Program-made: the position numbers and the translations under genes | Assembly: GCF_963921235.1 (NCBI RefSeq) | Contig: NC_086108.1 | Span: 43,464,001 to 43,528,000, forward strand | Direction of reading: 5' to 3' | DNA from: Mobula hypostoma | Taxonomy: Eukaryota | DNA: 64,000 nt | In this document: positions 14,501-17,899 of the stretch, one piece after another | How positions within the stretch are numbered: position 1 is the first letter of the stretch | Layout: each line of letters opens with the position of its first letter | The notes under the pieces: generated by a model | Databases searched by the model: none | The model's input: the letters and a program-made list of their open reading frames with translations, nothing else | Told to the model about the DNA's origin: nothing

Positions 14501-15442
14501 TAAGTGACCTGGATGAAGAGGCAGAAGGATGGGTGAATAAGTTTGCGGATGACACGAAGATTGGAGGAGTTGTGGATGGAGCTGTAGGTTGTTGAAGGTT
14601 ACAAGAGGATATAGACAGGATGCAGAGTTGGACAGAAAAGTGGCAGATGGAGTTCAATCCGGATAAGTGTGAGGTGATGCATTCTGGAAGGACAAACCAG
14701 AAAGCTGAGTACAGGGTTAATGTCGGTTACTTAAGAGTGCGGACGAACAGAGGGACCTTGGGGTTCAAATCCATTCATCCCTCAAGGTCGCTGCACAGGT
14801 TGATAGGATAGTTAAGAAGGCCTATAGGATGCTAGGCTTCATTAATAGGGGGACTGAGTTCAAGAGTAGAGAGGTCATGTTGCAACTCTACAAATCTCTG
14901 GTGATACCACACTTTAGAGTATTGTGTTCAGCTTTGGTCACCTCATTATAGGAAGGGTGTGGAAGCTACAGAGGAGATTTACCAGGATGTTGCCTGGATT
15001 GGAAAACAAGTCCAATGAGGCAAGGTTAGCAGAGCTGGGATTTTTCTCTTTGGAGCGTAGAAGGATGAGAGGAGGCTTGATAGAGGTCTACAAGATTATG
15101 AGAGGCATAGATAGGGTGGATAGCCAGTACCTATTTCCCAGGGCAGGAATAGCAAACACTGGAGGGCATATGTACAAAGTTACAGGAGGAAGATTAGGGG
15201 AGACATCAGGGGTAAGTTTTTTACACAGAGAGTTGTGGGTGCCTGGAATGACTTGCCAGGGGTGGTGGTGGAGGCTGAGACATTAGGGGTATTTAAGAGC
15301 CTGTTGGACAGGCACATGGATGAAAGAAAAATAGAGGGTTATGGAGTAGTGTGGGTTTAGTACTTTTTTTAGGAATATATGGGTCAGCACAATATTGAGG
15401 GCTGAATGGCCTGTACTGTGCTGTAGTATTCTAGTGTCTAGT
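11521..15442 (+). mobile_element. near full-length CR1 LINE (ORF1 zinc finger + SGNH esterase; ORF2 APE endonuclease + RT), disrupted
   Basis: ORF1 from ATG 11554 has CSDC..CKRC and VVIGDSIVRG. ORF2 has YFNMRSI, VYRPP, MGDFN, DFSKAFD, PQGSVLGP and FADD. TCTAGTG-type tail at about 15430-15442. Many stops and frameshifts. Confidence 0.92.
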
Positions 15443-15930
15443 ATATGAGGGATTCTTGATTATGTTGGCTGCTTTCCCAAGGTAGCAGGAAATGTAAACA
15501 GATTGACTGGAGGGGAGGCTTATTTTCCTGATTGCCGGGGCTGCATTCACAACTCTCTTGCGGTCTTGGGCAGAGCAGTTGCCATTCCAAGCTGTGATGC
15601 ACCAGGATAGGGTGCTTCCTGTGGTGCATCTGTAAACATTTGTGAGGGTCAATAGGGGTCTGCTGAATTTCCGGAGCCTTATGAGGAAGTAAAGACACAA
15701 GTGTGTTTTCTTGGCCATAGCATCTATTTGGCTGGATCAAGACAAGTTGGTGACATTTACACCTAGGAACTTGATGCTCTTAGCCACGTCCACCTCAGCA
15801 CCATAGATACAGAAAGGAATTTGTACTCTGTTCTGCTTCCTGAAATCAATAACCAGGTCTTTTGTTTTGCTGACATTGAAGAAAAGGTGATTGCCCTGAC
15901 ACCATTCTGCTTGGTTCTCTATTCCTTTCC
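15443..15930 (-). mobile_element. Rex1-clade LINE fragment (right part)
   Basis: Minus-strand peptide LYFLIRLRKF..YRCT..CITAWNGNC. Confidence 0.7.
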
Positions 15931-16031
15931 TGCCAAAAAGAAATGAGACAAAAAGAAATGCTTCAGATGTTAGATTTCAAGCTGGAAAAGGTTAACACAC
16001 TAGAGAAAAGTCACATCATTATGAGATCAAT

Positions 16032-16602
16032 CAGTTCAGTTGTTCGTCCATCATTGACGTCGATGAGGACCTCGACACCATAATGATGGTGTCGAGACTA
16101 GCGCATGATGTGGATTTAAGTGAGGGAGAGTTGTGCAGCGTCAGCCTCACTCTCTCTTCCCAATTCCCATCTGGGTCCAGTGGCAAGACAGAGTCTAGAC
16201 GGCTGGAGATGGGACTAGGTGCAGTGGATGACCAGGACATCTTCTGTTGTCTTGTCCTGCTCTACACGTTCCACGACGCTTGCAGAGACCGCCTTCTTGA
16301 CCGTTGGACCTTCCATTGGTCTCGTCTGCTCAATCTGCCGGAGTCTGTCTTCACATGCTGGGATAGACAACTCCCTATCTCACCGAGGGTTTGAGACCCG
16401 TCGGCTACCCTCACCTGGTTTAGCCGGCTTGTCGAAGCCGTTGCCCGGGGTGTGGCTGCTGTTGCATGCAAACAGCTACGGGGAGCCACAGGTGAGAGCT
16501 GAGTGCCAGGTGGAGACCAAAGGTGGACTAACCGCCCTGAAAAGGACGCGACATGTTTCCCCACCAGAAGTGCTACCCCTCCCTGACACCCCATATACCC
16601 CA
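16032..16602 (-). mobile_element. non-autonomous RTE-type retroelement (5' UTR + 3' end), about 571 bp
   Basis: Exact 11-bp TSD ATGAGATCAAT at 16021-16031 and 16603-16613. RTE-like 3' end GATGGACGAACAACTGAACTGA. No RT ORF. 5' end carries a ribozyme fold. Confidence 0.8.
16407..16592 (-). ncRNA. HDV-like self-cleaving ribozyme (predicted)
   Basis: P1 GGGGUGU/ACACCCC, P2 GCUCUCACCUG/CAGGUGAGGGU, P3 GGC/GCC, L3 UCCCCGU, P1.1 CC/GG, GCAA, P4 CGGCUU/AAGCCG, J4/2 GCUAA. Confidence 0.75.
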
Positions 16603-17899
16603 ATGAGATCAATAATAGGTTGGGATCCACTGTGGATTAAAAATGAATAGAAGTGCAATGCTACAAGTTGGGGCATGGAAAAAGCTCAGATTTATGTAAA
16701 GTGGGAGCAAGTCATAGGGTACCAGAAGAATGAATGGGAATGGATTTTTTTTCAGCCTTTCTCAACATACAAGTCAGACTCAGACTTTTTTTACTACCAT
16801 TCATAATTCAGTGTCTTTTTACCTGCTGGATGGAAATTACTTATACTGAACGGTTATCTTCTGCTTAAATGTTGACACCTTACGCTTGCTGCTAATGCAG
16901 AAGTATTTGATTCTTAGCCTAAATGTCTTTTGAAGTTTTCATCTGATGTATTTAATCCATCCTCTACATTTAAAAAGTTAAATGTTTTCAGTTTGTCAAA
17001 AGACTTAATTTTTCAACATAATAATAAACAAGGTAGTGATCAATGCTTTAAATATGCTGAGAAAGTTAGTCTTGTTGGTTCTATAAGATTAGCTGGTCTT
17101 GCTGTTCAGTGCATAAAATCGGATCAAAAATGTGATGCTTGGCAGATCTGTGCTGGTTTAGTTCTATTTTCACTAGACTAATCAAAGGATATCTTCAACA
17201 ATAACTTATATTCTTTTGCCCTGACACTTCTGAATTCTGACAGTTCAGTCTTTCTCTCTCATTTGTCTGATTTTGTCAGATTGTAACACATGGATTTGTG
17301 CAGTGTCCCTCAAACTGTCATTCAGGAAAATGACAGATATGAAATAGTAAACAATAGATAAAGAGAATGGGATATTATCAGAATACAAATACTGATTTCC
17401 TTCAGTTGAATATCTGCAGTGCCCACTTATTCCATTTGCAGATTCTTCATCTTAACCAGTAACTCATTTTTTTTCTCCAGTCACTCCGGCCAAGCTATGT
17501 GTTATCTTCATACAATATATATCTGGTAATCCTGAACAGATGAACAGAATCCTGTGAAACTTTGTGACAACTGATACAATGTTAATTTTGTTTTCTTGTA
17601 CACAGACTTTAACTCAGCTATTATAATTGCTGCCCTGAGTCCTGTTAAGTACTAACTCTTTCTTCTATTCTGCAACCATAAGCTCATACTTTCCCATGCC
17701 TTCACTGGCTTCCTGTTTCCTGCCATATTAAATTCACAGTTCTCACTTTAGTTTTCAAGCCTTCTTGAGAGGTGGCTATACTAAATTTGCCCAGCCCATC
17801 AATTGTCTGATTTTAGTTTTCTAGTTTTACTTGCCCCTCAGGAGGATGGCTATCAATTTTATTGCTTGTGCTTTTGTGAATGCTTTTTGCTATATTTTT

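Follow-up and report, generated by a model that had tools for sequence, protein, structure and literature searches.

A probable HDV-like ribozyme carrying an additional L3 hairpin at the start of a short non-LTR retroposon in Mobula hypostoma

Introduction

HDV-like ribozymes usually have an L3 of 7–8 nt, and the genomic and antigenomic HDV ribozymes and the CPEB3 ribozyme combine an L3 of this size with a short J1/2 and a G·U pair at the cut site, a wobble that is typical of HDV and CPEB3, though not universal. Within L3 of the HDV ribozyme a U20·G25 reverse wobble is described (PMC13635239). Ribozymes of this kind head the retroelements R2, R4, Dong, Baggins, RTE and L1Tc as well as the non-autonomous NARTc (PMC3774820, PMC6765202, PMC3383444), and the published accounts for R2, R4, Dong, Baggins, RTE and L1Tc describe read-through transcription and a cut at the element's first base (PMC3774820, PMC6765202). 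Large departures in size are on record for R2, with J1/2 loops of 216–498 nt, distances from P1 to P1′ that range from 23 to more than 700 nt, P1 mismatches in about one quarter of R2 ribozymes and a highly variable P4 (PMC3774820). R2 elements shortened by internal deletion to about 529 bp, which consist of the ribozyme and the 3′ end only, are reported to be self-cleaving (PMC3414825).

Here we describe an element of related design in a window of 64,000 nt, the whole stretch of M. hypostoma DNA that was analysed, and report its anatomy, copy number, insertion ends and pattern of conservation across three sequence families. These families, named Y, O and T here, share one fold, and the 195 nt at the element's 5′ end probably represent an HDV-like (double-pseudoknot) ribozyme, a structural variant with an extra hairpin in L3.

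Results

A short retroposon without a reverse transcriptase

The element lies on the minus strand and is a short, non-autonomous, apparently non-coding non-LTR retroposon, SIDE- or SINE-like, an assignment made because it has flanking duplications, short-repeat tails and many dispersed copies and lacks a reverse transcriptase. Its outer features in the window are the following:

16031–16601, minus strand: whole element, about 563 nt plus a tail of the (AACTGA)2 type; family Y (young)
16603–16612, minus strand: upstream target-site duplication TTGATCTCAT, 10 nt
16021–16030, minus strand: downstream target-site duplication TTGATCTCAT, 10 nt
16031–16041, minus strand: short-repeat tail of the window copy, AACTGAACTGA
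16071–16096, minus strand: 3′ hairpin CTCGACACCAT-CATT-ATGGTGTCGAG, a self-complementary match in copies

A search of the 3.48-Gb assembly with the 571-nt element as query returned 5,427 first-look candidates, and all 40 scored matches are almost full length and 96–100% identical. For a 19-nt core word with 10 free bases and 4 under loose restriction after it, there are 2,480 exact matches genome-wide. Among 30 fetched copies, which are best-scoring matches and thus a sample biased towards full length, the flanking duplication measures 8–13 nt in 21 and 6–7 nt in 6, and none was found by script in 3; the tails are (AAC)n, (CAAC)n or (AACTGA)n. About 30 nt upstream of the tail, the fetched copies carry the 3′ hairpin as a perfect 11-bp stem, which we infer to be recognized by the reverse transcriptase responsible for its copying. 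The window copy departs from the majority of the 30 copies by five CpG-type differences in the leader (element positions 33, 44, 88, 139 and 145), none of which falls in a core strand.

Some individual sites have peculiarities of their own. In the window copy a single extra T (16602) stands between the duplication and G 16601; in most other copies the duplication adjoins this first base, G1. Two core matches that lie 181 nt apart on the same strand have a rare C variant of the L3 hairpin in common (G000:C1:138946391-138946667) and look like a local partial tandem duplication. Directly downstream of the element, the minus strand of window positions 14800–15960 reads by eye like decayed LINE reverse-transcriptase sequence together with other repeats.

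A frame of about 113 codons is open to the 3′ end in two near-majority Y copies, L003 and L030 (element positions 223–563, for example L003:1723-2061), and is interrupted in the window copy by a 1-nt shift. No relatives of this frame were found among proteins of 199–2,000 aa, and it could have arisen by chance or derive from a former LINE frame. Nor was an autonomous LINE found that shares the head or tail of the element, and the 3′ hairpin preceded by another context just upstream has 0 matches in the genome. When context was compared 118 nt upstream, 15 matches with the 3′ hairpin and a differing context turned out to be 12 copies with indels and 3 apparently 5′-truncated copies, with no LINE among them; the 3′ end of the partner LINE may have diverged. 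A young 5′-truncated LINE with a 397-codon open reverse-transcriptase frame lies at L031:114-1307 (minus strand; G000:C12 near 187236000), and its copies elsewhere are 95–99% identical. We rejected it as a partner, since it is an unrelated young insertion that lies in an old family-O copy by coincidence.

The leader carries the segments of an HDV-like fold

The preliminary description of this locus had laid out the leader on the minus strand in HDV order with a hairpin inside L3, and when the sequence is read directly every segment it named is present at its coordinates:

16595–16601, minus strand: 5′ strand of P1 in use, GGGGUAU, pairing at 6 of 7 positions with ACACCCC; predicted cut 5′ of G 16601
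16586–16592, minus strand: second heptamer, GGGGUGU, previously taken as P1; base of the J1/2 hairpin with 16510–16503
16500–16594, minus strand: J1/2 insert, 95 nt, a long hairpin; the region that varies most between families
16489–16499, minus strand: 5′ strand of P2, GCUCUCACCUG, 11 bp; 0 of 11 majority differences between Y and O
16485–16487, minus strand: 5′ strand of P3, GGC, 3 bp
16477–16484, minus strand: L3 core, UCCCCGUA; U, CC and G kept in families Y, O and T
16458–16476, minus strand: extra hairpin in L3 (GCUGUU/AACAGC), 6-bp stem and 7-nt loop
16454–16456, minus strand: 3′ strand of P3, GCC
16447–16453, minus strand: 3′ strand of P1, ACACCCC; 0 majority differences between families
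16445–16446, minus strand: P1.1, GG, pairing with CC 16482–16483 of L3
16425–16440, minus strand: P4, 6-bp stem with loop CGAC
16418–16424, minus strand: J4/2, GCUAAAC, with the putative catalytic C at 16423
16407–16417, minus strand: 3′ strand of P2, CAGGUGAGGGU

L3 starts with UCCCCGU at 16484–16478, and the two P1.1 pairs are C:G in 31/31 and 28/31 rows of the three-family alignment. The junction that follows P1.1 and leads to P4 reads GCAAC in the window copy. Around the putative catalytic C, J4/2 reads GGC-U-AA in Y and O and GGC-C-AA in T, the base that follows this C being U in the former two and C in the latter, and two further bases (AC) precede P2′. The junction of P2 and P3 contains two extra bases and one unpaired U. 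In all three families the cut-site pair is G1:C 16447 and not a G·U wobble.

We expressed the fold as a descriptor comprising a 3-bp P3, L3 UCCNNG, an optional L3 hairpin, P3′, P1′, GG, P4, CNAA, P2 and P1. This descriptor, written post hoc, matches just one site on either strand of the 64-kb window, with two choices of P1, at 16601 and 16592. When P2 was allowed to be as short as 5 bp and P4 as short as 3 bp, simulation of 150 order-1 Markov windows yielded 13 partial matches and 1 that included P1 as well, and P2 exceeded 8 bp in 0/150 versus 11 bp in the element, figures that give a rough bound since the descriptor is post hoc.

Full-length copies begin at the first of two P1 strands

The P1 strand is doubled at the start of the element, GGGGURU-AU-GGGGUGU, and full-length copies begin at G 16601 in the first heptamer, not at 16592. 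Genome-wide exact matches separate the two positions: the TAT that precedes the second heptamer is kept in 1,469 and all three of its bases differ in 18, of which 7 read ATG+GGGG, most simply a 1-nt insertion. With these counts of 1,469 and 18, 16592 is not where copies start. Consistent with a start at the first heptamer, 25 of 30 near-full-length Y copies begin with GGGG and 2 with AGGG, the remaining 3 being short by 2–7 nt, and the O copies and 6/7 T copies begin GG(R)GUGU beside unrelated flanks. The first heptamer reads GGGGUGU, with 7/7 pairs, in families O and T and in 9/30 Y copies; in 20/30 of the youngest copies an A at position 6 gives an A·C mismatch in P1. Minimum-energy folds of Y, O and T copies place the second heptamer at the base of the long J1/2 hairpin. 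Contigs from four other organisms cover the element to 16605 and nothing past it, and O-type sequence is also present; these contigs show only a shared family and boundary.

These results revise the preliminary description at one point. It had placed P1 at 16592–16586, with a cut about 9 nt inside the element, a position that the copies do not bear out, as they begin at G 16601; in the minimum-energy folds the second heptamer lies in the J1/2 hairpin instead. The alternative it mentioned, GGGGUAU at the terminus 16601, is the strand at which copies do start, and the mapping of insertion 5′ ends against G1 that it proposed leads to G1 at 16601. Its wider claim, that an HDV-like ribozyme sets the element's 5′ end, remains the probable reading, given a predicted fold that is kept in three families and copy ends that fit it; the cut at 16592 does not survive.

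Three families keep the core and vary around it

Family O was recognized through an old relative, 71% identical, that lies beside one copy, and 15 further O copies were fetched; family T appeared in the output of a pattern search, and 7 copies were fetched. P1, P1′, P2, P3, P1.1, the L3 positions U, CC and G, and J4/2 GGC-N-AA are identical in Y, O and T. Between the Y and O majorities 0/45 core positions differ (both strands of P2, U114 with P3, P3′/P1′/P1.1 and J4/2), whereas J1/2 differs at 18/95 positions (Fisher p = 7.5e-4 versus core) and element positions 196–330 differ at 26 of 124 compared (p = 1.9e-4 versus core), the core positions having been picked from the HDV model, so that their choice was not blind.

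At positions 4–5 of L3, Y has CC where O and T have AA, and the bases that join P1.1 to P4 read GCAAC in Y, UACAC in O and UAAAC in T. The changes in family T are confined to L3 positions 4–5, the distal L3 hairpin, the post-P1.1 junction, P4, J1/2 and the free base after the putative catalytic C. The differences between families lie at positions known to vary freely in HDV-like ribozymes. When the genome was searched for sister families that combine these L3 and J4/2 motifs with another P1′, 1 match appeared, a decayed Y copy.

One O copy (L063:125-330) lacks the apical part of J1/2, its second heptamer being joined to the 3′ half of the insert; this may be a random deletion.

Compensatory changes support P4

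The proposed structure pairs 93.0% of cells in an alignment of 31 copies from the three families, compared with 35–46% when the partner strand is slid by 1–3 columns, and 94.8% of cells over 43 copies, with 35–47% for slid strands across the 43- and 31-copy sets. Three of the six pairs of P4 have changed on both sides between families: one is C:G in 17 rows and G:C in 8, another C:G in 20 rows and U:A in 6, and the third U·G in 13 rows, U:A in 9 and C:G in 7. An apical pair of J1/2 is likewise A:U in 27 rows and G:C in 10. These compensatory changes trace back to a few events that many copies have inherited and do not represent numerous independent ones. P1, P2, P3 and P1.1 are invariant between families, and covariation is silent on them because none varies. 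The covariation check of P1–P4 that had been suggested for this locus thus bears out P4, through its compensated pairs, and says nothing on the invariant P1, P2 and P3. A U:A to C:G change in P2 of two O copies was discounted, as a neighbouring G to A breaks the next pair.

RNAalifold, applied to the 43 copies, predicts neither P2 nor P4 and prefers a nested hairpin UGUGGCU...GGCCACA around the L3 hairpin (window 16454–16490, minus strand) that uses three bases of P1′; in this model the nested hairpin could be an inactive alternative fold. Single-sequence folds are not more stable than shuffles (z = -1.24, -1.12, -1.02 and -0.44). Scans of 5 kb and of 216 nt against Rfam give no match at the site at E values up to 10, in agreement with the expectation stated for this variant that standard descriptors would miss it, and RF00094 run over the genome gives 0 matches among 84 candidates scored. 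A metagenome scan with a 23-nt core word also gives 0 matches.

An extra helix within L3

A 19-nt hairpin extends L3 to 28 nt (26 nt in T). In Y and O a 6-bp stem is capped by the loop UGCAUGC; in T the stem is 5 bp long and the loop reads AGCACGC. A version without the hairpin was sought in the genome, giving 0 matches with 0–6 nt between the L3 core and P3′ and 1,945 with 7–40 nt; none of the recovered copies is without it. Genome-wide, one pair of the hairpin is T/A in 1,691 copies, C/A in 13, T/G in 17 and C/G in 1 (0.15 expected for C/G), a 2×2 count that lends no support to a compensated subfamily or to selection at that pair. In the literature searched we found no precedent for a helix in L3 of any HDV-like ribozyme. 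A single O-like copy (L084; G000:C1:242418320-242418636) has a longer, different sequence in place of the L3 hairpin, with 47 instead of 44 nt between the anchors.

Whether the hairpin acts as a working extra helix of the HDV fold, and the element represents a structural subclass invisible to descriptors and covariance models with a 7–8-nt L3, is in our judgement evenly balanced. If this reading of the L3 helix is true, counts of HDV-like ribozymes in large animal genomes would be too low, a helix inserted into the active-site loop would be tolerated and might serve to bind proteins or to aid folding, and promoter-less, ribozyme-headed short retroposons would have reached thousands of dispersed copies in a vertebrate.

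Discussion

A proposed route of self-cleavage and mobilization

By analogy, the element is best read through the mechanism established for R2, R4, Dong, Baggins, RTE and L1Tc, and we consider it likely that a working HDV-like ribozyme, as predicted here, defines its 5′ end. We infer catalysis, co-transcription and mobilization in trans along the following lines. The element has no recognizable promoter of its own, and because of this it would be transcribed within longer host RNAs. The terminal heptamer (16601–16595) would supply P1, followed by the structured 95-nt J1/2 and then by P2, P3, P1.1 and P4, with the 19-nt hairpin in the 3′ part of L3, and the folded ribozyme would cut 5′ of G 16601. 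The released RNA would start with G1, end with the 3′ hairpin and the short-repeat tail and be copied in trans by the reverse transcriptase of a LINE, so that each new full-length copy would start exactly at G1 and carry the ribozyme again.

Alternatively, the leader may no longer cut: it would be a conserved structured RNA descended from or resembling an HDV-like ribozyme, disabled by the helix inserted in L3 and by G:C pairing at the cut position, and kept for reverse transcriptase binding, RNA stability or packaging while the 5′ end is set otherwise. Such folds have a known non-cutting role, as the R2 protein is reported to bind a pseudoknot in the R2 ribozyme region (PMC6765202), and a leader of this kind would fit the lack of an Rfam match, a 28-nt L3 with no precedent found in the literature searched, G1:C at the cut site, the A·C at P1 position 6 in 20/30 young copies and the competing nested fold of RNAalifold. 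We nevertheless judge it unlikely. The unpaired catalytic positions (U, CC and G of L3, GG of P1.1 and GGC-N-AA) are fixed in three families, which a scaffold would not need; in each family the element opens with the base that begins the P1′-complementary strand; and Y, O and T have all amplified to many copies with the hairpin present.

A precise common 5′ end would equally be expected if it were a transcription start, set by an internal promoter of the pol III type or of the pol II type seen in L1Tc Pr77, with the HDV likeness secondary or coincidental; in L1Tc, promoter and ribozyme are described within the same 77 nt (PMC3383444). By eye, part of the family Y sequence loosely resembles tRNA A and B boxes. 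Yet no tRNA, 5S, 7SL or snRNA match was found, ARAGORN reports no tRNA, the B-box-like stretch is absent from family O, and family Y has TTTT at element positions 59–62, a run that would tend to stop pol III. An internal promoter would also leave the conserved double-pseudoknot strands unexplained, and we regard it as quite improbable. To a mere chance resemblance in a G+C-rich repeat we give next to no credence: the descriptor was post hoc and fold energies are no better than those of shuffles, both of which would fit chance, but 0/150 simulated windows combine a P2 of at least 9 bp with the other elements, conservation is significantly higher in the core than elsewhere in the element, P4 covaries and P1 begins at the insertion end.

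Comparison with known ribozymes and ribozyme-headed elements

Downstream of P1′, family Y presumably has the same GG-GCAAC as the genomic HDV ribozyme; its J4/2 sequence GGCUAA would be that of the antigenomic HDV ribozyme, and its L3 pattern U-CC-N-C-G that of the HDV and CPEB3 ribozymes. HDV and CPEB3 ribozymes match Rfam models, whereas the element's RNA does not. A ribozyme of another class, twister, heads the RTE-type Perere-3 of Schistosoma, where likewise the ribozyme cut site is described as the first base of the element (PMC8501958).

With the HDV-like ribozymes of other non-LTR elements, as described in PMC3774820, the element shares its topology, a cut at the first base (predicted in the element), a large J1/2, a variable P4, a small number of fixed positions, namely the catalytic C and the L3/P1.1 bases, and a presumed reliance on read-through transcripts. 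It is unlike them in its 28-nt L3 with an internal helix, its doubled P1 strand, its G:C cut-site pair and its cartilaginous-fish host; we found no HDV-like ribozyme in a shark or ray retroelement in the literature searched.

The element most resembles the R2 SIDEs and R2/R1 hybrid SIDEs described from Drosophila (Eickbush and Eickbush 2012, PMC3414825). SIDEs of 529 bp and the element of about 563 nt are both short, the SIDEs non-coding and the element apparently so. In both, an HDV-like ribozyme (predicted in the element) stands at the 5′ end, followed by an unrelated middle and by a 3′ end suited to a LINE reverse transcriptase, and relatives differ in J1/2 and in compensated stems. SIDE cleavage has been shown in vitro and the partners of SIDEs are known, R2 and R1 (PMC3414825); for the element cleavage is a prediction, the pattern searches found no partner, and L3 contains a hairpin. 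SIDEs occupy fixed rDNA sites in few copies (PMC3414825), but the element is dispersed in thousands of copies with variable duplications of 8–13 nt.

An active ribozyme would mean that L3, the catalytic loop of the delta fold, has room for a whole helix; the space to be searched for such ribozymes would grow, their escape from standard models would be explained, and a vertebrate would possess a ribozyme-headed short retroposon in thousands of dispersed copies, the known SIDEs being few and rDNA-confined. Thousands of self-cutting intronic sites could then affect host transcripts. Families Y, O and T constitute a natural mutational series. What is new relative to known systems is the helix in L3, the doubled P1 strand, the dispersal in thousands of copies and the cartilaginous-fish host.
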